This document shows, one piece after another, positions 9,400 to 54,686 of a stretch of 64,000 bases of DNA; position 1 is the first letter of the stretch, and each line of letters opens with the position of its first letter. The notes under the pieces are model-generated. The model had not been told where the DNA came from and did no database searches. It saw only the letters and a list, made by a program, of their open reading frames with translations. Origin of the DNA: an uncultured Candidatus Saccharibacteria bacterium (GTDB taxonomy: Bacteria > Patescibacteriota > Minisyncoccia > UBA6257 > 1-14-0-10-44-23); contig CAZJVT010000002.1 in assembly GCA_964549935.1 (NCBI GenBank), forward strand, positions 40,993 to 104,992. The letters run 5' to 3'. The position numbers and the translations under genes were made by a program.

Positions 9400-9484
9400 G
9401 GAAGGGTGGCAGAGTGGTCTAACGCACCGCACTTGAAATGCGGCGTGCCGCAAGGCACCGTGAGTTCGAATCTCACCCCTTCCG
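9400..9484 (+). tRNA. tRNA-Ser (anticodon TGA), long variable arm.
   Basis: Acceptor GGAAGGG/CCCTTCC, anticodon loop CTTGAAA, variable arm CGTGCCGCAAGGCACCG, T-arm GTGAGTTCGAATCTCAC. A candidate promoter TTGAAG-N17-TACATA lies upstream. Confidence 0.85.
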
Positions 9485-9641
9485 CGCTATGCGGGAAAAA
9501 ATCCGTTTCGAATCCTTTTCCATCCGCAGCGTTCGTGAGTTCGAACCTCTCCATGGCAGCTTTAAAGCGAGTCTTTTAAGTGAAGCTGCCCCTGCCTACC
9601 GGCAGGCAGGCGTTTTGTCCTGCTGGCTAAAACCCCCTTCC
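9485..9641 (+). repeat. tRNA-Ser(TGA) 3'-flanking mini-element carrying the shared palindrome.
   Basis: Contains T-arm-like copies (GTGAGTTCGAACCTCTCC), the hairpin GGCAGCTT..AAGCTGCC, the palindrome CCTGCCTACCGGCAGGCAGG (9589-9608), and ends with a second copy of the tRNA 3' end, CCCCTTCCGC. Confidence 0.6.
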
Positions 9642-10912: not shown

Positions 10913-11131
10913 TTACTCTAGTTCATTCATCAGAGAACGGATATCATCGTAGGCACGCCCAACATACTTTTTTAAGCCGCGCAAATTCTCTGCTGCCTCT
11001 TCTCCGGTCGCCGGACGGCGCCCGGCATAGTACTCAATCACATCCCGATAGATTGTATCGTTGATTATCCGCGCTCGGCGAATGATATCATTTTGTTTTG
11101 CCTGCGCTCCCTGTGCATCAAAGTCTGCCAT
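10913..11131 (-). CDS. Hypothetical small protein.
   Basis: 72-aa ORF with no recognisable domain. Confidence 0.35.
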   Translation of the reverse strand: MADFDAQGAQAKQNDIIRRARIINDTIYRDVIEYYAGRRPATGEEAAENLRGLKKYVGRAYDDIRSLMNELE

Positions 11132-11152: not shown

Positions 11153-12097
11153 TTACAATTTTGACGGGGTCGGACGGACCGGATACAAGTCGGCGTCGAT
11201 CGTGCGAGTAAAGCAAGTACGTCCACCGCCGTGCACCCACGTGTCATTGCCGGCGCCCGTAATCGGCTTGGTGATACCCTGCGCGTCTACGCTCTGCAGG
11301 CCGAAGGTAGCGCACAGTTCAAACACCGTGGCTCCAGTTGGCTTATATTCGTATTGCAACTGCTTTGTGACGAACTCCGGGTCAACCGGCACCATATAAC
11401 CGGAAATCGGGTCCTGGAGGCTATCTAAGCTCTTTGGAAGTGATCCTTTGCTCTGCCAGTAATTTACTATCTGCCACTGGATGTTTTGCAGGTCACCGAC
11501 GCGTTGACTGTCGTATTGACGAATGCGAGCGGTCGTTGGACTACCGACAATAAAGAATCCACCGACAACAGTTGCGAGAACAAGAGCGAGGGCGGCATAG
11601 CGAAACACTCCGCGTTGCGGAGCCTTTTTGCCGGCGTCACGCCGCAGCTCGTAGAAGTAGTACCCGAAGACCAGTGAGGCAACGACGGCCACGGAAAGAA
11701 CTTTCAGGAAGAAAGTCGGCGCAAACTCGCCAGAGAGGAACTGATAGATAAGAGCGATGAGATCGGCGATAAGGGCAATGGCGGCGAGCGAAAGAGTGAT
11801 ATACATCATCCACTTGCGGATGCGCAGCTCACGCTTTTCCGGATGTGCCTCCAGGTCTTTATTAAGCGAGTGCGTTATCCACACGTATACCGGGAAGACG
11901 ATAACCAAGCTGGCGATTGCCCAGCGCATCGAACCGCTAAACCAGGCGCTATCACCGCCGTAGTAACTCGTGGTGCCGAAACTGTAGTTAATGTAATCGT
12001 AGAGCAGGCTGACAAGCCATCCGGCACAGTAGTAAAGACCTAAGTTTGAAAGCAGGTGCAAAAAGAAGTCCTTTGGTGAAGTTTTAATGTGTTCCAT
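11153..12097 (-). CDS. Membrane protein with an N-terminal multi-TM domain and a C-terminal soluble domain (DUF5671-like).
   Basis: Four TM helices followed by a ~170-aa extracytoplasmic domain. Confidence 0.5.
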   Translation of the reverse strand: MEHIKTSPKDFFLHLLSNLGLYYCAGWLVSLLYDYINYSFGTTSYYGGDSAWFSGSMRWAIASLVIVFPVYVWITHSLNKDLEAHPEKRELRIRKWMMYITLSLAAIALIADLIALIYQFLSGEFAPTFFLKVLSVAVVASLVFGYYFYELRRDAGKKAPQRGVFRYAALALVLATVVGGFFIVGSPTTARIRQYDSQRVGDLQNIQWQIVNYWQSKGSLPKSLDSLQDPISGYMVPVDPEFVTKQLQYEYKPTGATVFELCATFGLQSVDAQGITKPITGAGNDTWVHGGGRTCFTRTIDADLYPVRPTPSKL

Positions 12098-12187
12098 ATC
12101 TCTCTAGTATACGACGTATGGTCGTCTTTGACTATTACAGCTAGGAGGGTGTATAAAAGAATAAGTCCCGAACCAAGAGGAGAGCTC

Positions 12188-12520
12188 ATGACGACTGTCG
12201 CAGAGAGGGCCACTCCGGCCCTACCCGGCTGGGCATGCTGGTGCAATGCAATGAACCCGGAAGAACTTCAGAAGAAGGCTCCGGATCACCGTGGCAACGA
12301 GTGCCACTTGTGTGCATGCGGTCTCTGGGTACCGACCGGCACCTACCCCGCGCACCTCGTGGACCAGCACTCGATCCCCGCGCCGGATACGCAAACCACC
12401 GAGCCTGCGGCTTGCCCGGGCGTCTGCCACAAGACGACCTTCCCGGATCAGGCCTGCGAAGCACGTTGCTGCAGTGCGTGCTCCAGACACGTGATCTCTT
12501 CACCGTCACACGGCTTCTGA
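12188..12520 (+). CDS. High-GC cassette gene A: small Cys-rich protein (13 Cys in 110 aa).
   Basis: ATG preceded by AGGAGAGCTC. About 65% GC with GC3 bias. Cys motifs CWC, CHLCAC, CPGVCH, CEARCCSACS. Flanked by GC hairpins. Confidence 0.5.
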   Translation: MTTVAERATPALPGWACWCNAMNPEELQKKAPDHRGNECHLCACGLWVPTGTYPAHLVDQHSIPAPDTQTTEPAACPGVCHKTTFPDQACEARCCSACSRHVISSPSHGF

Positions 12521-12629: not shown

Positions 12630-13313
12630 CTATTTGTGATGTCGCGCCCGGTCCGAAACAATAACGCCGTCTTTGAGCGTAATAATGCGCTGTGCTTTGC
12701 TCGCATACTCCTCTTCGTGAGTAACCATAATAATGGTTTGTCCACTTTTGTGCAGTTCAATAAAGGAATCAATAACTGGACCGGCGCTTGCAGAGTCTAA
12801 GTTAGCGGTCGGCTCATCGGCAAATAAAATCTGCGGTTCGTGCGCAATAGCGCGAGCGATAGCGACACGCTGCTGCTGCCCGCCGGAAAGTTGGCTGGGC
12901 TTGTTGCCAAGCTTGTCGGCGAGATTCACGCGCTCAAGCGCCTTAATCGCTTTTGCTCGCGAATCGGCAGAACTCATTCCTGCGACATTCATAGGCAACA
13001 TAACGTTTTCGAGCGCGGTTAACTCCGGTAAGAGCGCGTAGTCTTGAAAAACGTAGCCGAGCTTATTAAGTCGGAGTGCGGTTTTATCAACTTCGCTGAG
13101 CGTCGAGGTCTTGTGGTCATCCAAATACACCTCCCCTTGCGTAGGATTATCGAGCAGCGAGAGTTGGTAGAGCAGTGTCGACTTACCAGCGCCAGAAGGA
13201 CCGATAATGGCGACAAATTCGCCGTCTTTGATTTCAACGTCGATATCTTTAAGCACCGTCACCTCCAAGTCTCCCTTACCGTATTTTTTTACTAATCCTT
13301 TTGCTCTGATCAT
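12630..13313 (-). CDS. ABC transporter ATP-binding protein (MacB/LolD type).
   Basis: Walker [10 protein letters not shown], signature [14 protein letters not shown], Walker B ILFADEPT. Confidence 0.9.
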
Positions 13314-13317
13314 ATAA

Positions 13318-14643
13318 TTAGCGACCTAAAATTGCATCAAGTGTATTGCGACGGACAATCATTTTTGCGGGGATATAACCGGCGATAAGCGTTACGATGA
13401 GCAAAATACCGACACGAAGCATCGCTCCTCCGGCAGTTGCGACGAGAATGCCGTCTGAAAACGGAAAATCAATTGGGTTCGCATCAAAGTAGGGCTTCAA
13501 GACTCCGAAGGTCATTAGCAGTCCAGCGACAGAACCAATCAGACCGTAAATGATGGCTTGAAAAATATATGAGAGCTCGATAATTTTTGGACTGATACCG
13601 ATGCCTTTCATAATGCCGATAAACTTACGCTTCGTAATGGCATTAATGAAGATAACGATAAAAATCGTGGTCGCCGCTACGACAAGCGCGATTGACGAAA
13701 GACCGTTACCCAGAATTCCGAAGGTTGTTTCGATATCGTGCAAGAACGAAGGAATCGCCTCAAGCGAGGTCTGCGGGCGTGACTGATACGGACCCATAAA
13801 GTCTTTTATCTCAGCGACAAGTGTCGGCCCATAAGCCTCGTCGGTTTTAATGGCAATCTCCTGATACTGCTCTTTATTAACCGGTAACATACGCTTGAGC
13901 TCCTTGGCGGGAATAAACATACGCGTAGAAATCTGGTCAACCTTACTCTTAACGATGCCTTTGATGATGAATTCTTTGCTGATTGGATCGCCGCCGGCAT
14001 TACTAATAGTAAGTCGCACGCGATCACCCACTTCAACATCACTTAACAGGTCCAAGCCCGGAATATTCGCATCCGCAAACGTTGAATACTTCTTTAGCAT
14101 ATTGGCGCCAAGCAGCGCATAGCCTTCCTCGTTGTCATTAAGCATCTCACCGTACTTAATAAAGCGCGAGAAGCCGGTCAGTTTTTCTTCGTTCGGCAAA
14201 TCAATGCCGACGACGCTGATACCAATCTTGTTGGTACGCTCTCCTTTGTTTGGCAGATCGTTTAAGGTGCCTAGGAGCTGGCCGTTAACGGTGTAGCGGG
14301 CTGAAATTGCCTGAATGCGGGGATCACTGTGTAAATACGAGAGTAGCGCCGGTGAGTTTTCGATATAGTCCTGTTTGGCAGCTGCGGTAACAATCACCTC
14401 CCCGGAGTAACTCTGGCGAAAAGCCTGGAACGAGCCGGCGATGAGTCCACGCAGCAACCCGGAAACGACGACGAGGTTTAAAAACGTAAGCACCATAATG
14501 AATACGATGAGACCCGTCGTCCACTTACTGGCGTGTCGAATACTGCGGATGGCTAGAAACCAACCGACGGAGAGCGCAATTTTATACTCCTTTAAAAACC
14601 TCGTAATTCTTCGCATGGATACGTCATTTAGTCCCAACCACAA
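13318..14643 (-). CDS. ABC transporter permease, FtsX/MacB type, with a large periplasmic domain.
   Basis: N-terminal TM helix, ~250-aa periplasmic domain, and a C-terminal FtsX 3-TM bundle. Confidence 0.85.
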   Translation of the reverse strand: MWLGLNDVSMRRITRFLKEYKIALSVGWFLAIRSIRHASKWTTGLIVFIMVLTFLNLVVVSGLLRGLIAGSFQAFRQSYSGEVIVTAAAKQDYIENSPALLSYLHSDPRIQAISARYTVNGQLLGTLNDLPNKGERTNKIGISVVGIDLPNEEKLTGFSRFIKYGEMLNDNEEGYALLGANMLKKYSTFADANIPGLDLLSDVEVGDRVRLTISNAGGDPISKEFIIKGIVKSKVDQISTRMFIPAKELKRMLPVNKEQYQEIAIKTDEAYGPTLVAEIKDFMGPYQSRPQTSLEAIPSFLHDIETTFGILGNGLSSIALVVAATTIFIVIFINAITKRKFIGIMKGIGISPKIIELSYIFQAIIYGLIGSVAGLLMTFGVLKPYFDANPIDFPFSDGILVATAGGAMLRVGILLIVTLIAGYIPAKMIVRRNTLDAILGR

Positions 14644-24294: not shown

Positions 24295-24321
24295 ACATTA
24301 GAATGTATTTTGATGGTGTTG

Positions 24322-24392
24322 TGGACCTGAGGAGAATCGAACTCCTACCTCCTCCATGCCATGGAGATGTAATACCATTTTACTACAGGCCC
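24322..24392 (-). tRNA. tRNA-Ala (anticodon GGC).
   Basis: Acceptor GGGCCTG/CAGGTCC with the G3:U70 alanine identity pair. Anticodon loop ATGGCAT, T-arm AGGAGTTCGATTCTCCT. Confidence 0.75.
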
Positions 24393-24534
24393 AGTTGAAC
24401 GAAGTGATACTGGCGCTACTAGGAACATCGGCGGAGCCGATTCCTATAGTAGCAAGATTACCCAGATTCGTCTCCTGCGAGGAGACGATAATCTTACTAC
24501 AGGCCCAGTTGAACGAAGTAATACTGGTGTTAGC
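24393..24534 (-). repeat. tRNA-Ala 5'-flanking mini-element.
   Basis: A ~41-nt direct repeat (TTACTACAGGCCCAGTTGAACGAAGTRATACTGG..) covers tRNA nt 1-13 plus upstream flank, at 24380-24420 and 24494-24534. It brackets 73 nt containing the hairpins AGGAA..TTCCT and CGTCTCCTcgcAGGAGACG. Confidence 0.65.
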
Positions 24535-26532: not shown

Positions 26533-26619
26533 GGAAGCGTGGCTGAGTGGTCGAAGGCACCGCACTCGAAATGCGGCAGGCTCGAAAGGGCCTCGGAGGT
26601 TCAAATCCTCCCGCTTCCG
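26533..26619 (+). tRNA. tRNA-Ser (anticodon CGA).
   Basis: Acceptor GGAAGCG/CGCTTCC, anticodon loop CTCGAAA, long variable arm, T-arm GGAGGTTCAAATCCTCC. Confidence 0.85.
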
Positions 26620-36571: not shown

Positions 36572-37354
36572 CTAGGCCTTCTTGGCGATAACCGGAGCGG
36601 CGGTCGCCTTCTCCTTGATTGCGTGAGCGATAGTCTTGTCGAGCTCGGCGAGAATATACTCAATTGAGCTGGCAGCACCGTCGTTAGCCGGAATCAGGTA
36701 GTCAATAAGATCCGGGTCGGTGTCGGTATTAGCAATAGCGATGACTGGGATCTTGACGCGCTTAGCCTCACGGATAGCGGTGATGTGCTGCGGTGCACCA
36801 ACGACGAGCAAGGCGCCCGGAAGCGAGCTCATCTTTTCAAGACCGCCGAACAGCTTGGTCAGGCGCTCGATTTCTTTGTCGATGACGACGCGCTCCTTTT
36901 TAGTGTACTTGTCGAGACGGCCGGCAGCCTTATCCGCCTTACGGGTGATGAGGTGCTGAATTCGCTTGCTCAAAGTTTCAAAGTTTGAGAGCGTACCACC
37001 AAGCCAACGGTCGGTAACGCGCGGGAGCGAGTACTTGTCGGCAAACTTCGTAGCCGGAATCTGACCAGCCGGAGTCGTCGCGGCAACAAGCAGCTGCTGA
37101 CCCTTTTTAACTAATTCCTTCAAGAACGCTTGCGCCTTTTCAATTCCGGCGTTTGTCTGGGCGAGGTCGATGACGTCAAAACCCGCACGAGTCGTGTGGA
37201 TGTACGGCTTCATCTTCGGGTTGGTCTTGTTGCGACGGCGGCCAAAAAGCACACCGACCTTAGCCATCTCCTCGAAAACCGCTAACTCCGCCTGGTTAAC
37301 CGGCGCTGCAACCTCCTCTACCTCCACCTTCGAATTCTTTGTGTCGTCTGACAT
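36572..37354 (-). CDS. rpsB: 30S ribosomal protein S2.
   Basis: GVLFGRRRNKTNPKMKPYI...QLLVAATT core. Confidence 0.9.
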   Translation of the reverse strand: MSDDTKNSKVEVEEVAAPVNQAELAVFEEMAKVGVLFGRRRNKTNPKMKPYIHTTRAGFDVIDLAQTNAGIEKAQAFLKELVKKGQQLLVAATTPAGQIPATKFADKYSLPRVTDRWLGGTLSNFETLSKRIQHLITRKADKAAGRLDKYTKKERVVIDKEIERLTKLFGGLEKMSSLPGALLVVGAPQHITAIREAKRVKIPVIAIANTDTDPDLIDYLIPANDGAASSIEYILAELDKTIAHAIKEKATAAPVIAKKA

Positions 37355-37550
37355 ATGAATTTAATAATTTTATTTTAAACCTACAATTTTCGATTAAAGA
37401 AAAAGGCGCCTTTAGGGCGCGCACAAAATAAAAACTACGTCATGTGCGCCCGATAGTATGTACTGTCGCTCCAAAACCCTCGTGGCGTTCGGGTTGGTGG
37501 AATAGAGAGAATATACAGGATTTACCGGAAAAATGCAAGATTTGCCAATA

Positions 37551-37578
37551 ATTGACTTTTATATCATATATGATATAA
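37551..37578 (+). promoter_or_regulatory. Strong sigma70-type promoter with an embedded 18-bp perfect palindrome (candidate operator).
   Basis: TTGACT-N16-TATAAT. The spacer and -10 are covered by TATATCATATATGATATA (37559-37576). An AGGAGACC ribosome-binding site follows, then the ATG of cassette gene D. Confidence 0.65.
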
Positions 37579-37602
37579 TATCTCCCGAAAGGAGACCTCC
37601 CG

Positions 37603-37827
37603 ATGATCCAATGCATTGAGTGCAGCCGGGCGGCGACCTGGTGGATTGAGTCGAAGAGCCACATCACCTTCAACTCACCCGCCTGCGACCGCCATCGGTA
37701 CATCGTCATCCACGGAATCAACGTCAAGATCCGCGAGATGAACAAGTTCGACGACCGGTGTATGTATCACAAGCTGCCACTAGCGACCATGCGTCCTTTG
37801 GCAGGCGCGACTGACCCCCAGACGTAG
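37603..37827 (+). CDS. High-GC cassette gene D: 74-aa zinc-ribbon-like protein.
   Basis: CIECSR...CDRH...C.YH cysteine/histidine pairs. AGGAG ribosome-binding site. Followed by a GC hairpin and a T-run terminator (37830-37872). Confidence 0.5.
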   Translation: MIQCIECSRAATWWIESKSHITFNSPACDRHRYIVIHGINVKIREMNKFDDRCMYHKLPLATMRPLAGATDPQT

Positions 37828-37841
37828 AGCGCCCCGCGCGC

Positions 37842-38240
37842 TCACAACGCGTCGGGGGTCTGCTCTTTTTTGAGAATCTCTTTGTCCTCGTCTGGCAGCG
37901 GCTGCACCGAAGGTGCAAGTATCTCTCTCACCTCATCAAAATCTTCAAACATTCTCTCTCGTAGCTTACGTTCAGCTTCATCGCATTCCTCATCCAGCCT
38001 TGAAAGCCGCATCGCTGCTTCGATGCGATCTAAGACTTTATCGATAACTTCATCTGTCTCAAGATGCGCAAGGGCTTCGTAAATTTTACCGCTAAAGCGC
38101 GGTCCGCATATCTCTATGACTCGAGCAATACGCGGGGCCACAACCGGCCCAAATTCCCGCTTAAGAGCTCCTCCTAGCGCACGCTCTACCGGATTGGTTT
38201 TATGCATTGAGTCCTCTTGTCCTGCACCTTCAGTAGTCAT
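37842..38240 (-). CDS. Hypothetical acidic protein.
   Basis: 132-aa ORF overlapping the glycosyltransferase stop by 4 nt. Confidence 0.4.
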   Translation of the reverse strand: MTTEGAGQEDSMHKTNPVERALGGALKREFGPVVAPRIARVIEICGPRFSGKIYEALAHLETDEVIDKVLDRIEAAMRLSRLDEECDEAERKLRERMFEDFDEVREILAPSVQPLPDEDKEILKKEQTPDAL

Positions 38241-42448: not shown

Positions 42449-43597
42449 TTAATTAAATTTTATACTTTTTACTATCTTCTCGACTATTTGGTTTAAAGCT
42501 GAGGGAAATTTTTCACGAGCCCTTTCACAATCAGCAACCTGTTCAGGCGTACGATCATATGGCTCACCATTACGACAACTTACAGTTCCAACATTTATCG
42601 TGAACTCAACAGTTATTAATTTCTCAGAAAGAGCAGTCACATACTTATACATTCTCACATGGTAATTCCCCATAGCATCATCTCTCATAACAGTTAGACA
42701 ATAATTTCTGTCGCTAATGGCGAGCTGTTCTGTATTGGGTCCAATTGCACCTTCGTTAGTAGTAACACAATTAAAACTTCCATCGGCAATGGTTACCCGT
42801 GGCGGCCAAGCCTTGTAATATTCATTTTTTTCTTCAACACCGGCATCGTTAGTTCTCAATGTATAAGCTACCCCGCCAGTCCTACGATCATTCATCACGG
42901 AATAATATGGCAGGCCCAATTGGTTCGGAAACTGGAAAGTAACCCCCTGTTTTTCATCAGTTTGCGTCCACCACTTTACCTCATCGCCAAACGCTATACT
43001 TTGCACGATCCGGTCAACCATTGGATCTAACTGCGACCATACAACACCTGAATCTTTTTCTTTCTTGCAATCAATAATTTCTTCTGTCGTCATACCGAAC
43101 GATTCGCTACACCCATTTGCAGAATGTGTTTGAAAGCTAATCGTAACCAATTTATCTCCGATTGCAGTCATATAATCTCTCGAACTATACGAGCTGCCCA
43201 TGGATGCATCGGCCTCTCCGCTAACGCAATATTGTCTCCCGTTTATAGTTTCTAGGATAGTACGATAATTCCCTCCTTCGCTTAATGTGTGCTTAACGCA
43301 AGAAAAAGCCTCGGAACTTACCTTGACCTTTATGGGACCATTAAAAGAAGTAAACTGTGCATCTAAACGATTCGGGTATTGGTATGAAATACCTTGCTCG
43401 GTATCAATTTTAGTCAGCCACTGATAGGGCTCAGGCTGGACCACTTCCCTTTTTGTCGGCACATAGACGGGTGGGTAAACTCGGTTGTCTACAATGTGCG
43501 GATACGTGCGGGAATGGACATTCACCGCAACAAGAATTGCCACCACGGCTACTATCCAGACTTGAATTGCTAATTTCTTATTCATAACTTTAAGCAA
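42449..43597 (-). CDS. Hypothetical secreted/anchored protein with a tandem-duplicated ~150-aa Cys-containing domain, embedded in the atp operon.
   Basis: Signal-anchor followed by two homologous halves (QGISYQYPNRL...RQYCVSGE...IVQSIAF and QGVTFQFPNQL...RNYCLTVM...IVKSIKF). About 43% GC. It overlaps the atpG stop by 8 nt and lies 6 nt upstream of atpD. Confidence 0.6.
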   Translation of the reverse strand: MLKVMNKKLAIQVWIVAVVAILVAVNVHSRTYPHIVDNRVYPPVYVPTKREVVQPEPYQWLTKIDTEQGISYQYPNRLDAQFTSFNGPIKVKVSSEAFSCVKHTLSEGGNYRTILETINGRQYCVSGEADASMGSSYSSRDYMTAIGDKLVTISFQTHSANGCSESFGMTTEEIIDCKKEKDSGVVWSQLDPMVDRIVQSIAFGDEVKWWTQTDEKQGVTFQFPNQLGLPYYSVMNDRRTGGVAYTLRTNDAGVEEKNEYYKAWPPRVTIADGSFNCVTTNEGAIGPNTEQLAISDRNYCLTVMRDDAMGNYHVRMYKYVTALSEKLITVEFTINVGTVSCRNGEPYDRTPEQVADCERAREKFPSALNQIVEKIVKSIKFN

Positions 43598-44511: not shown

Positions 44512-45078
44512 CTAGTTGAAGATGATGTGTGTTAGAAACTCGTTAAGACGAGTAAGGTCTGCTGCCTTGGCCTCCTTTTCTGTCTTGAATATTCTTTGGT
44601 AGGCCAGAGTAACAGAGCCCTTTGGAAGTTGCTTGAAAACGAGCATGACGCCTTTTGCATATGCGCTCGCCTGTTCATTAATGGGGGCAACATACTCATA
44701 TCGCAAAGCGGGTAAACCACCTACGGTAACTACCGTGGACGAGTCTAATGCAGCGGCGTAGTCGTTAAACGACTCGGTGTCGCCCGGCTTGCCTCCAATC
44801 ACGATAGCTTCGAGCGTTGAGGTACTGCGAAAGATAGCGTTAATCGTAAGCGGGTCGGTAGTTTTTGCACTATCATCCTTCGTCTCTGCCGGACCCTCCC
44901 AGTCCTTTCCGTATGCAATAGAGAAACCGTAATCCAGGTTGGTGTAGGTAGCCTGACCAGTCGTGGTATCCACTTTAGTAACCGTGTGATCACTCTCCGG
45001 ATTTCTCAAAGACAAATAACCGACAACCGCGGCTGCGACTACGATGATTCCGATGATGATTGGTAATTTCTTCTTCAT
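44512..45078 (-). CDS. Hypothetical secreted protein inserted between atpA and atpG.
   Basis: Signal-anchor MKKKLPIIIGIIVVAAAV. Intergenic gaps are 3 nt and 1 nt. Confidence 0.55.
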   Translation of the reverse strand: MKKKLPIIIGIIVVAAAVVGYLSLRNPESDHTVTKVDTTTGQATYTNLDYGFSIAYGKDWEGPAETKDDSAKTTDPLTINAIFRSTSTLEAIVIGGKPGDTESFNDYAAALDSSTVVTVGGLPALRYEYVAPINEQASAYAKGVMLVFKQLPKGSVTLAYQRIFKTEKEAKAADLTRLNEFLTHIIFN

Positions 45079-48991: not shown

Positions 48992-49328
48992 ACTATTGAG
49001 TATGTATGCCGGAGGTAGTAAGTAGCAAGTAGTTAATGCAGAAACCTCCTTCTGCGCTAACTACTGACTGCTGTAACGAGTAACGCAGTATCGCGGCGGA
49101 TAGTGCCGCGATCACTTGCCTCTGTCTACCCTCTGCATACCTTAACTATTTCAATGATGCTGCTATTTTAGCAGAATATCCTGAAAAATGCAATAGAGCT
49201 GATTTGTGCATAAAATGATCGAGCCACTATCGCCTCGGCGAAACGAACCGGCCCGAGCGGGGAGGAATCCCCGCTCGGGCCGTTGCGAACTGATCCGAAA
49301 CGCTCCATGTTTTCCTAAGGACGGAGGC

Positions 49329-49634
49329 TCACTCCTCGTCATCCTGAGAGAGGATGTAGGTCACGATGAGCAGAACGACGACTCCGATGATCATGAGCGG
49401 AAGGTGCTGCCCGGCCCAGACCGTGGGTTCGAACCCCGTCATGAGCAAGGCGGCGGTCCGAATCACGACCGAGATCGCGAGCGATGGGGCAAGCACCACG
49501 CTGATCCAGTACGAGGGCACGTTCTCTCCGCGTCGCTTCGGACTGTCCAAGCGAACGAAGTAGCTGAGTCCCCAGGCCATCAGAGCTGCGAGAACGAGCT
49601 CCACGACCGAAAGCCACAGTGGCATCTGCAACAT
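49329..49634 (-). CDS. High-GC cassette gene E: small 3-TM membrane protein.
   Basis: ATG preceded by GGGAGGAGAAGCG. About 62% GC. Followed by the 34-nt perfect GC hairpin CGGCCCGAGCGGGGAggaaTCCCCGCTCGGGCCG. Confidence 0.5.
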   Translation of the reverse strand: MLQMPLWLSVVELVLAALMAWGLSYFVRLDSPKRRGENVPSYWISVVLAPSLAISVVIRTAALLMTGFEPTVWAGQHLPLMIIGVVVLLIVTYILSQDDEE

Positions 49635-49714
49635 CGCTTCTCCTCCCTAAGTTAACACCGCCACACAGCGGTATTAAAGTTACCCTACCCCCGAGGTGCG
49701 AAACACGCAAGATA

Positions 49715-49746
49715 TCACTGATTACTACGGCCGTAGTAATCAGTGA
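49715..49746. promoter_or_regulatory. 32-bp perfect palindrome (candidate operator) in a divergent promoter region.
   Basis: TCACTGATTACTACGGCCGTAGTAATCAGTGA, between cassette gene E (minus strand) and the yvcK-like gene (plus strand). Confidence 0.55.
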
Positions 49747-49797
49747 TAATGAGCCAGTCGCTCGACAACCAGAGAAATCGAGTTTAGGATAGTTGCT

Positions 49798-50772
49798 ATG
49801 AAGAAGCTCAAAAAAATTGTTGTCATCTGCGGAGGTTCCGGCGGCTCTGAACTGCTCGAGGTTTTACGTGGCCATGCAAACATTACGGCTATTTTACCCG
49901 CAACCGATGATGGTGGCAGCGGCGGTTGGGTGCGCGAGCACTTCAATATGATTGCCCCGGGCGATTTCCGCCGTGCACTCGTAGCGCTCTCTTTCGAAAA
50001 AAACAAACGCGTAAAGGAAAACTTTCTCTACCGCTACCCCTCCGGCGAGATGAAGGGCCAGGTCATCGGCAACCTCGTACTGGGAATTTTTAAAGAAGAA
50101 ACCGGTGATTTTGATAAAGCTATTGCCGAAGCTGCCAAGATGTTAAAGGTGCGAGATGCGATTTTACCGGCCACGAAAGACCTCGTGACGCTTTGCGCAG
50201 AACTCGAGGGCGGCACGATTGTCCGCGGCGAACACAATATGTCCCTTGATTGGAAGCACGCAGAGGGTTACGGCAACCGTGATATGAGTAAAAAAATCGT
50301 CCGTTTGTTTACTGAGCCAGTCGCAAAAATTCACCCATTGGCAAAGCAAGCAATCAAGCAAGCTGATGCAGTCATCATCTCCGTTGGAGATCTCTACACC
50401 TCAATAATCGCCAATTTTGTAATCGCCGGAATGCCTGAGGCTCTTAGTACGACGAAGGCTCCGGTTATTATGTTTGTTAACTCAATCACGACTCAAGCAG
50501 AGTCCGATGGATTTAGCGCCAGCGATTATATCAAAACCTTTGAACAGTATGCCGGAGCAGGCAGTGTCGATGTCGCAATCGTCACCAAAAACATTCCGGC
50601 CATAGCACTCAAGCAATTCGCCGCCGTCAAGCCGGAATTTGCCAAGCCGGACATCGAAAACTTCCCGAAGCACGTTAAGCCGCTACTGGCGAACTGGAAT
50701 ACCACGAAGGGAAGCTTTAAAGCAGACCCGAAAAAAGTTTTACCGTTGCTAAAGAAGCTCGGCGCCTTGTAG
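49798..50772 (+). CDS. YvcK/CofD-family (UPF0052) protein.
   Basis: IVVICGGSGGSELL....ITAILPATDDGGSGG signature of the gluconeogenesis-factor / 2-phospho-L-lactate-transferase fold. Confidence 0.8.
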   Translation: MKKLKKIVVICGGSGGSELLEVLRGHANITAILPATDDGGSGGWVREHFNMIAPGDFRRALVALSFEKNKRVKENFLYRYPSGEMKGQVIGNLVLGIFKEETGDFDKAIAEAAKMLKVRDAILPATKDLVTLCAELEGGTIVRGEHNMSLDWKHAEGYGNRDMSKKIVRLFTEPVAKIHPLAKQAIKQADAVIISVGDLYTSIIANFVIAGMPEALSTTKAPVIMFVNSITTQAESDGFSASDYIKTFEQYAGAGSVDVAIVTKNIPAIALKQFAAVKPEFAKPDIENFPKHVKPLLANWNTTKGSFKADPKKVLPLLKKLGAL

Positions 50773-50796
50773 AACTTTAGTTAACTAAAGTGCCGT

Positions 50797-53984: not shown

Positions 53985-54686
53985 TCAGTTCGCGAGCATC
54001 GCGAAGTCGAACCTCTTGATCCTGTCCTCCAGGAACTCGGCCCTTGCCCGCTCGTACTGGAAGATGAACTCCTGCGCCTGGAGACGCAGGGTCTGGTTCG
54101 CGGCGACGTAGTCGAAGTCCTTCTGCGCCTGGTAGCAGAGAGTGAAGTCGCCGACAGAGGTCGGGTAGACCACCCAGCGACCGGCCTTGACCGCCGCCTT
54201 GGGAACCGCGATGCCGCCCGTGTCGTTGCCGGCGAAGGCGGCCTCGATCGGATCTGCGATCCTCGACTCGAAGTGATCCTCCGGGTACGGGTCATAGAAG
54301 AAGGCATCGATGCGTGCACTGCCGGCGAGCTCGAGATGCTCCTCGTGCTTCGTGTCGTCGTACCGCGCGAAGGCGGCCGAAAACACCTGCGTCGAGATCG
54401 TGCGGATGAAGCCATCGAACAGGTCACTCGGCACCGGAGTCTGTCCGGCAGGTGCGTGCTCGCGGAAGAACTCGTCCAAGTCCTTGACCCGGACTCCCTC
54501 CTTGATCAGCGCAGCCTTGGTCCCACCCGTAGCCAGGATCTCGACATTGTCCGCGTCGAGCAGCTTCGCGATGTCCAGGTACCCGTCCCAGTCTTCTCCC
54601 TTCTTGTTCCAGAGCGAGAACAGGGCACGCTTGATCTCGCGCGGCCGCAGAATGACCGCCTCCATGACTTCGTGGGGTGCACTCAT
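53985..54686 (-). CDS. High-GC cassette gene F: protein with an MGS-like domain (resembles the PurH N-terminal domain) plus an unknown C-terminal region.
   Basis: ATG preceded by GGAGGGAATTCG. About 64% GC with strong GC3 bias. ILATGGTKAALIKEGVRVKDLDEF resembles the MGS/PurH nucleotide-binding motif. The antisense 320-aa ORF is an Arg-rich artefact. Confidence 0.5.
   Translation of the reverse strand: MSAPHEVMEAVILRPREIKRALFSLWNKKGEDWDGYLDIAKLLDADNVEILATGGTKAALIKEGVRVKDLDEFFREHAPAGQTPVPSDLFDGFIRTISTQVFSAAFARYDDTKHEEHLELAGSARIDAFFYDPYPEDHFESRIADPIEAAFAGNDTGGIAVPKAAVKAGRWVVYPTSVGDFTLCYQAQKDFDYVAANQTLRLQAQEFIFQYERARAEFLEDRIKRFDFAMLAN

Follow-up and report, generated by a model that had tools for sequence, protein, structure and literature searches.

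Genomic setting of two promoter-region palindromes

We analyzed a 64-kb stretch of bacterial DNA (hereafter the window) that carries two long perfect palindromes in promoter regions: P1, at the promoter of a small gene called gene D, and P2, in the spacer between gene E and yvcK. P1 is conserved in one relative and recurs in front of glmS in three others, and it is probably an operator for a dimeric regulator of this lineage. The window derives from the chromosome of a small-genome bacterium and contains rpsB-tsf, the F1Fo ATP synthase operon, a cofD-like yvcK, glmS and a malic enzyme gene, as well as riboflavin synthase genes, type IV pilin-like genes, parB and ten tRNAs; its GC skew is negative throughout. 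The closest named matches of its YvcK are taxa of the Candidate Phyla Radiation (CPR) at ~36% identity, and the gene order is common to the window and relatives with 62-71% YvcK identity. Gene content and the distant YvcK matches thus suggest a CPR-like organism.

The promoter of gene D (37552 to 37579, plus strand) consists of the -35 element TTGACT (37552-57), a 16-nt spacer and TATAAT (37574-79), with a predicted start at ~37586. A first-pass annotation of the sequence had described a near-consensus TTGACT-N16-TATAAT promoter at this place, and it was right: with 11/12 positions matched, this is the top promoter match in the 15 kb scanned. A TG at 37571-72 makes it a sigma-70-type promoter with an extended -10 (TGaTATAAT). 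The same annotation had reported an 18-bp perfect palindrome in spacer and -10; this is present (TATATCATATATGATATA, 37560-37577), but the true length of P1 is 20 bp (TTATATCATATATGATATAA, 37559 to 37578). Its core is a 7-4-7 inverted repeat, TATATCA-TATA-TGATATA, at 37560-37577. P1 overlaps the spacer and the extended -10, and if transcription starts at ~37586 the dyad spans -27 to -8 and is centered at about -17.5. By length alone P1 is only marginally unusual, as the longest palindrome reached at least 20 bp in 10% and 24 bp in 0.3% of 300 first-order Markov simulations of the window.

The dyad is conserved in a relative and recurs upstream of glmS

In a relative whose contig (L018) holds the orthologous promoter, P1 is 100% conserved. 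The promoter segments AATAATTGACT and TATATCATATATGATATAAT are identical to the window, and the palindrome extends to 22 bp. The -35, TG and -10 are kept as well, while the spacer measures 17 nt instead of 16, the indel lying outside the palindrome. Since a promoter needs the -35, TG and -10 but not 11-12 fixed spacer bases, the conservation of P1 goes beyond promoter need. The gene downstream has changed far more. Between the window and L018 the coding sequence of gene D is 60% identical at the nucleotide level and 44% at third codon positions, with a proportion of synonymous differences (pS) of 0.77, which is saturated, and a nonsynonymous divergence (dN) of 0.39. From these two values we conclude that gene D is a real open reading frame (ORF) under purifying selection whose neutral sites have been randomized.

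A palindrome scan of all fetched loci found the exact P1 18-mer upstream of glmS in a second relative, L013, and a mismatch scan added glmS-upstream sites in L014 (TATATCATACATGATATA) and L015 (TATATCACACATGATATA). Each of these three sites is found in intergenic DNA that otherwise cannot be aligned between L013, L014 and L015; it lies past the terminator of the upstream gene, toward glmS, at a distance of 70-125 nt from the glmS start codon. The motif therefore falls at two non-orthologous loci, gene D in two genomes and glmS in three. Counting the 14 specified bases, between 0.0002 sites (first-order Markov model) and 0.006 sites (independent bases at 35% GC) are expected by chance in the ~142 kb of lineage DNA examined; five were observed. 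The earlier proposal that P1 is an operator-like site is thereby strengthened, both by its conservation in L018 amid a saturated coding sequence and by its recurrence at glmS in three relatives.

The arms TATATCA and TGATATA are invariant in 5/5 sites (window, L018, L013, L014 and L015). The central four nucleotides, read toward the downstream gene, vary between TATA, TGTA and TGTG, and so do the two flanking bases that finish the gene-proximal -10 hexamer (AT, AT, AA, GT and AT); in L013 the hexamer reads TATAAA, with A at position -7. Because the arms are invariant while the center and the hexamer-completing flanks vary, the constrained unit is the dyad and not the -10 hexamer.

The first-pass annotation had proposed searching for additional copies of either palindrome. 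Such copies exist for the P1 motif, at glmS in the three relatives; P2 has none, and neither palindrome is repeated in the window, where no further P1 copy was found with up to 3-5 mismatches allowed. The glmS ribozyme (Rfam RF00234) has no match in the window, L013, L014 or L015. A literature search on the P1 motif and on Saccharibacteria regulons found nothing relevant.

Gene D is a lineage-specific gene beside rpsB

Gene D (37603 to 37827, plus strand) encodes a 74-amino-acid ORFan and is preceded by a 17-nt leader with the Shine-Dalgarno sequence AGGAG at 37590-94. The product has no Pfam domain, no match by BLAST against phages and no homolog among 5.8 billion clusters searched by word index. 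When 1.84 billion representative proteins were scanned in full with HMMER, a single homolog was returned, P0122, with 70 amino acids and 56% identity, and a profile built from the two found no further members. P0122 is encoded on L018 at the same place, divergent from rpsB-tsf, with RpsB 80% identical. The residues C4, C7, C28, H31 and C53 are conserved between the two proteins and possibly form a zinc ribbon; AlphaFold models of gene D are unusable, with pLDDT scores of 44-50. In L014, a glycosyltransferase gene abuts the rpsB promoter and gene D is missing, so the gene D unit is an insertion/deletion polymorphism. The word cassette, used for gene D from the start, fits this comparison.

On the other side of the intergenic region lies rpsB (36572-37354, minus strand), which has its own promoter and a structured leader, both kept in relatives. 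The promoter, read from sequence at 37510 to 37538 on the minus strand, consists of TTGCAT (reverse complement of 37533-38), a 17-nt spacer and TATATT (reverse complement of 37510-15). Its layout is kept in L014 and L018, and the gene D unit starts 12 bp past the rpsB -35. The 5' leader of rpsB (37355-37505 on the minus strand of the window, 405-640 in L014 and 1770-1915 in L018) contains conserved blocks that include GGGCGCACA, a GCGCC-N5-GGCGC hairpin and an A/U-rich tail ahead of the start codon, with some covariation. No known RNA family of Rfam matches the leader or the gene D locus; the leader may be an S2 autoregulatory leader of this lineage.

Downstream, gene D ends in a terminator on the plus strand (37806 to 37870), a compound hairpin at 37813-37860 followed by a U-run, with a folding energy of -34.5 kcal/mol; it probably also serves the convergent minus-strand operon. 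This block is ~94% identical between the window (37806-37870) and L018 (2232-2298), whereas the coding sequence is only 60% identical, and it is conserved despite a frame shift of the stop codon (TGA in L018, read through to TAG in the window). Such conservation exceeds the usual need of a terminator hairpin.

With a GC content at third codon positions (GC3) of 0.81 against 0.44-0.67 in its neighbors, gene D belongs to a set of small or unknown high-GC3 genes. In the window these lie at 27373-28062, 34326-34637, 37603-37827, 49329-49634 and 53985-54686, and in relatives at 11628-12314 (L013), 12994-13683 (L014), 13050-13673 (L015) and 2029-2241 (L018). Their GC3 is 0.74-0.85, compared with 0.44-0.67 in neighboring genes. 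The bias persists in relatives despite saturated synonymous divergence, and a single recent transfer does not explain the set; the L014 ortholog of an MGS-like gene has a GC3 of 0.41. Three plus-strand ORFs with high GC3 share the ribosome-binding context C(C/A)CGAAAGGAG (27356-27372, 34346-34356 and 37581-37597), two of them with 15 identical bases, CTCCCGAAAGGAGAC. Directly 5' of this context, the gene at 27.3 kb has an imperfect GC-rich palindrome, TCGTGCTGGCCATGGTGGCCAAGCACGA, at 27328-27355.

A longer palindrome lies between gene E and yvcK

P2 is a 36-bp perfect palindrome (TATCACTGATTACTACGGCCGTAGTAATCAGTGATA) at 49713 to 49748. A 32-bp palindrome had been reported here at 49715-49746; it is present, but the symmetry runs two bases further on either side. 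In the 300 simulated windows the longest palindrome never exceeded 24 bp, and the length of P2 is far beyond chance. Independent support comes from a Logan assembly (L001, SRR14271332), which starts inside P2 and reproduces 30/36 of its bases; the break lies where a k=31 graph is expected to fail at a perfect palindrome. As single-stranded DNA, P2 folds into a 16-bp hairpin of -14.3 kcal/mol (z = -7.3). Symmetric elements are nested within it: ATCAnTGAT at either end and TTACTAC-GGCC-GTAGTAA in the center.

Gene E (49329 to 49634, minus strand) encodes a 101-amino-acid predicted membrane protein, has a GC3 of 0.80 and is followed 3' by a GC-rich terminator hairpin at 49249-49282. It has weak homology, limited to the N-terminus, to an 81-amino-acid gene in the corresponding position in L013; in L014, L019, L020 and L022 this position has no gene. 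As first described, P2 lies about 80 nt upstream of gene E, measured from its left edge to the ATG at 49634. The promoter of gene E, inferred at 49682 to 49710 on the minus strand, has TTGCGT (reverse complement of 49705-10), a 17-nt spacer and TAGGGT (reverse complement of 49682-87), with a predicted start at ~49675, and aligns with TTGATT-N17-TAGTGT in L013. Facing away from it, the yvcK promoter (49762 to 49790, plus strand) reads TCGACA-N17-TAGGAT and ends 7 nt before the ATG at 49798, with a predicted start at ~49797. In L013, L014, L015, L019, L020, L021 and L022 the yvcK -10 likewise lies 6-7 nt before the ATG, leaving little room for a Shine-Dalgarno sequence, and the yvcK mRNA is probably leaderless throughout the lineage.

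P2 sits between the two divergent -35 elements, 2 bp from that of gene E and 13 bp from that of yvcK; counted from the two predicted starts, its center is at about -55.5 and -66.5. Both palindromes had been proposed to overlap cassette promoters as operators; the overlap is present at P1, but P2 is upstream of both -35s and only possibly an operator. P2 is part of a ~70-bp lineage-specific segment that L013 does not have. Searches for its arms in GTDB representative genomes, JGI metagenomes and IMG/VR gave only scattered, chance-like hits (Bacillus, Niallia, Bacteroidales and others), two matching metagenome contigs contained an unrelated hairpin, and BLAST of the region against phages and plasmids found no match. 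P1 and P2 share only TATCA/TGATA, at a spacing of 4 nt in the former and 1 or 26 nt in the latter, and we rejected the idea of one factor binding both. P2 was also rejected as a promoter pair, since its TAGTAA(T) has no A at -11 or T at -7 and its -35-like hexamers match at 3/6 positions, and as a parS, dif, attC or protelomerase site or a sequencing adaptor, to none of which it has any sequence resemblance.

Three further observations concern yvcK and its neighbors. At 603-616 of L021, the palindrome ATACTATATAGTAT contains what appear to be the -10 elements of two divergent promoters, TATAGT for leaderless yvcK and TAGTAT for the gene of a 34-amino-acid membrane peptide, and would be a bidirectional promoter of compact and symmetric form. 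In the window, an 18-bp perfect AT-rich palindrome, ACTTTAGTTAACTAAAGT (50774-50791), takes up all of the space between the stop codons of the convergent genes yvcK and glmS; the gaps in L013 (~9440-9470) and L014 (~10976-10997) have different sequences that are also hairpin-forming, and the palindrome is presumably a bidirectional terminator without a GC-rich stem. Finally, L020 has a reverse-transcriptase gene (RVT_1, 2495-3553) in place of glmS, convergent to yvcK.

P1 as a candidate operator and the alternatives

On balance, we think it probable from the sequence comparisons that P1 is an operator for a dimeric transcription factor of this lineage and that P2 is a separate element, either a regulator site or a young palindrome without function. 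Invariant arms around a variable center, together with variable outer flanks, argue for a site bound by a dimeric DNA-binding protein. A -10 hexamer alone is disfavored, because its -7 T would then be the most conserved base and yet is A in L013. The gene-proximal arm would double as the TG and the first four bases of the extended -10, so that a dimer covering -27 to -8 would exclude RNA polymerase and repress the otherwise very strong promoter of gene D. In the relatives with glmS sites the same element would control glmS, and in the window genome and one relative the lineage-specific ORFan inserted beside rpsB. The lack of a detectable glmS ribozyme makes repression of glmS by a protein plausible. 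The signal may be an amino sugar or a cell-wall precursor, as the link to glmS alone suggests. What we observe are the sequences, the promoter matches, the pattern of conservation, the occurrence at two unrelated loci and the lack of a nearby regulator gene; binding by a protein, repression and the kind of signal are what we infer at P1.

The regulator itself would be encoded outside the window. Among the 50 window proteins scanned with Pfam there is no transcription factor except ParB, in agreement with the remark in the first-pass annotation that no regulator is obviously encoded nearby. The same annotation had considered that the operator arrived with a foreign cassette. This is not favored: the motif is rich in A and T, and relatives have it at a housekeeping gene, which marks it as native to the lineage and not as an import that came along with a cassette of high GC (gene D GC3 0.81).

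Several observations weigh against this interpretation of the two elements. The P1 motif occurs at only two independent loci in the ~142 kb, part of it (TRTG and TATA) would be conserved anyway as an extended -10, and the window's own glmS upstream region lacks it. Here the upstream neighborhood has also changed: the MGS-like gene found before the glmS site in L013 and L015 is 47% identical to its window counterpart, which is located on the opposite side of the malic enzyme gene, so the absence of the motif coincides with a rearrangement. P2, for its part, is absent from all eight relatives with a readable atpB-yvcK spacer, has no second copy or half-site cluster in the window (up to 3-5 mismatches) or in relatives, lies outside both core promoters, and keeps its symmetry across the central 6 bp, where a protein-binding site would not need it.

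For P2 two origins are conceivable: it could be the site of another multimeric regulator, or a recently created palindrome without function. In the latter case a replication template switch, or quasi-palindrome correction, would have copied one arm into its inverted complement within a fast-evolving spacer; this deserves serious consideration, at somewhat less than even odds. Template switching creates perfect inverted repeats in one step, and P2 is perfect through its center, without a mismatch, unique, and contained in the ~70-bp segment that the nearest relative does not have; a single ATTACTAC at the homologous place in L013 may represent the arm from which it arose. At this locus, however, the YvcK of the nearest relative is only ~71% identical, a distance at which timing cannot be judged. 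Long perfect palindromes are normally unstable and tend to disappear unless tolerated or selected, and P2 lies exactly between the two -35s, centered at -55.5/-66.5 on the same helical face, as would be expected of a site for a shared regulator. Perfect central symmetry and lack of conservation thus make P2 lean toward a young element, its exact placement between two promoters toward a functional one.

The most serious competitor for P1 itself, though in our view an unlikely one, needs no dedicated regulator. P1 would be a symmetric, bidirectional promoter core of back-to-back extended -10 elements (TGATATAnn on each strand), its left arm being conserved as the -10 of an opposite-strand promoter. 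The 22-bp palindrome of L018 reads a perfect TGaTATAAT on both strands, and the 14-bp palindrome of L021 appears to hold overlapping -10s of divergent yvcK and a small gene. The central TRTG fits the '-16 region' of Gram-positive promoters, and symmetric -10 elements reportedly cause divergent transcription, a finding attributed to Warman et al. 2021. The opposite-strand hexamer, however, has no -7 T in 2/5 sites (TATAAA in the window, TATATC in L015), and with the gene-proximal hexamer reading TATAAA in L013 the invariant unit is the 18-bp dyad. An opposite-strand transcript at the glmS sites would moreover enter the upstream gene's terminator and have no target, and at gene D the divergent rpsB is already served by a conserved promoter of its own, at a distance of 40 bp.

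The operator interpretation of P1 can be extended to a whole circuit. TATATCA-N4-TGATATA might define a new regulon in a CPR-like lineage that replaces the glmS ribozyme or DasR/NagR in the control of amino-sugar supply and that has been rewired in the window genome, where glmS would have lost its operator when its upstream neighbor was rearranged, the Cys-rich ORFan beside rpsB would have acquired it, and yvcK, homolog of the GlmS activator gene, would have gained P2 as an unusually long palindromic control site. We regard this scenario as speculative and rather improbable as a whole.

It is very unlikely that P1 is bound by the small Cys/His-rich product of gene D, in a variant of the operator model with a locally encoded, autoregulatory factor. 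Palindromes are common over the promoters of small genes that regulate themselves, the protein has a conserved CxxC...CxxH arrangement and basic residues, and operator and gene co-occur in both genomes that have gene D. Against this, the three genomes with glmS sites have no gene D homolog detectable in the 1.84 billion representatives or 5.8 billion clusters (metagenome-assembled genomes may be incomplete), which makes gene D an unlikely regulator; no Pfam DNA-binding domain is found either, and the structure models are uninformative.

The last alternative, that the palindromes are structural parts of mobile cassettes (attC-like sites, ends of miniature inverted-repeat transposable elements (MITEs) or insertion sequences, phage or plasmid sites), has next to no credibility and is largely refuted for P1: in comparison with some relatives genes D and E are indels, and their GC3 of 0.80-0.81 is atypical, but P1 lies within a promoter and not at a cassette edge and also occurs at glmS without a cassette, both palindromes are 5' of genes with their own promoters, neither has the cores (RYYYAAC/GTTRRRY) or the bulged imperfect symmetry of attC sites, no integrase or transposase is nearby, and there is no similar DNA in phage or plasmid collections and no repeat-family member in the window.

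Other features of the window

Two extra genes are inserted in the ATP synthase operon (42449-43597 and 44512-45078). One, of 382 amino acids, 42% GC and without a Pfam domain, lies between the gamma- and beta-subunit genes, the other, of 188 amino acids, between the alpha- and gamma-subunit genes; relatives vary in which extra genes they have.

Several tRNA genes are followed 3' by short inserts of 114-202 bp, at whose edges the tRNA 3' end or its downstream hairpin is duplicated (8318-8595, 34793-35079, 24321-24532 and 26533-26780; also 2086-2108 and 9588-9610). They contain exact repeats of 38 nt (at 8401 and 8558) and 19 nt (at 34859 and 35061), the inserts 3' of tRNA-Leu and tRNA-Tyr are 71-84% alike, and the palindrome CCTGCCT(G/A)CCGGCAGGCAGG occurs three times close to tRNAs. 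These inserts have the appearance of a small family of repeats associated with the 3' ends of tRNAs, and no Rfam family matches them.

Implications and comparison with known systems

Regulators and their binding sites are essentially unmapped in the ultra-small, host-dependent CPR bacteria. P1 adds a candidate glmS-linked operator in a CPR-like lineage without the glmS ribozyme, an element of a kind already known; that a lineage-specific ORFan would be wired to the same candidate operator as glmS gives it modest added interest. The 18-bp dyad at glmS and at the ORFan offers a concrete handle on the regulon and its regulator, and a foreign-looking small gene on a native control element bears on how new genes are domesticated. 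P2 lends itself well to asking whether selection or mutational accident accounts for long perfect palindromes in compact genomes.

P2 resembles two-dimer operators, such as the 28-bp QacR IR1 and those of other TetR-family regulators, in length, nested symmetry and location in a divergent promoter region; it differs in having no divergent TetR-like gene, no second copy and no conservation, so the likeness is one of size and layout. With inverted repeats made by template switching it shares symmetry that is perfect to the center, the lack of a loop, lineage specificity and a possible single-arm ancestor in L013, although donor and target arms are not demonstrable at the available divergence. 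For P1, conservation at two loci excludes a template-switch product. A MerR-type promoter was rejected as well, as the spacers are 16-17 nt instead of 19-20 and the dyad, centered at -17.5, overlaps the -10. Neither palindrome is an intrinsic terminator, since the genes on either side of each are divergent, a T-run is missing and the terminator scan reported neither of them, and no further copies of the kind expected of repetitive extragenic palindromic elements or MITEs exist in the 64 kb.

P1 is like symmetric or bidirectional promoters in presenting TGATATA on both strands, and the yvcK/small-gene case of L021 is comparable. It is unlike them in that conservation follows the dyad and the putative -10 hexamers are 10 bp apart, not overlapping. 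With known forms of glmS control (the glmS ribozyme of Firmicutes, GntR-family DasR/NagR, and NagC) it shares the target, glmS, in three relatives. Here, however, there is no glmS ribozyme, the motif is unlike the dre/NagR site (of the ACTGGTCTAGACCACT type), and in the window it stands at an ORFan. In B. subtilis the YvcK homolog GlmR activates GlmS, and yvcK is the convergent neighbor of glmS in this lineage.

Compared by eye with consensus sequences, P1 differs in orientation or spacing from the boxes of Fur/PerR/Zur, FNR/CRP and NrdR, from CIRCE and from the ARG box, and it does not match the DasR dre site either. Fur recognizes TGATAAT-N1-ATTATCA and FNR TTGAT-N4-ATCAA, that is, TGAT-N4-ATCA, whereas P1 has ATCA-N4-TGAT. 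In architecture, P1 is most readily set beside repressor operators that overlap the -10 or spacer of sigma-70-type promoters, such as LexA SOS boxes and the 7-1-7 sites of Fur/PerR/Zur in Gram-positive bacteria. Like these it is a dyad of ~18-20 bp between -35 and -10, with invariant arms and a variable center, found at several promoters and predicted to act by steric exclusion of RNA polymerase.

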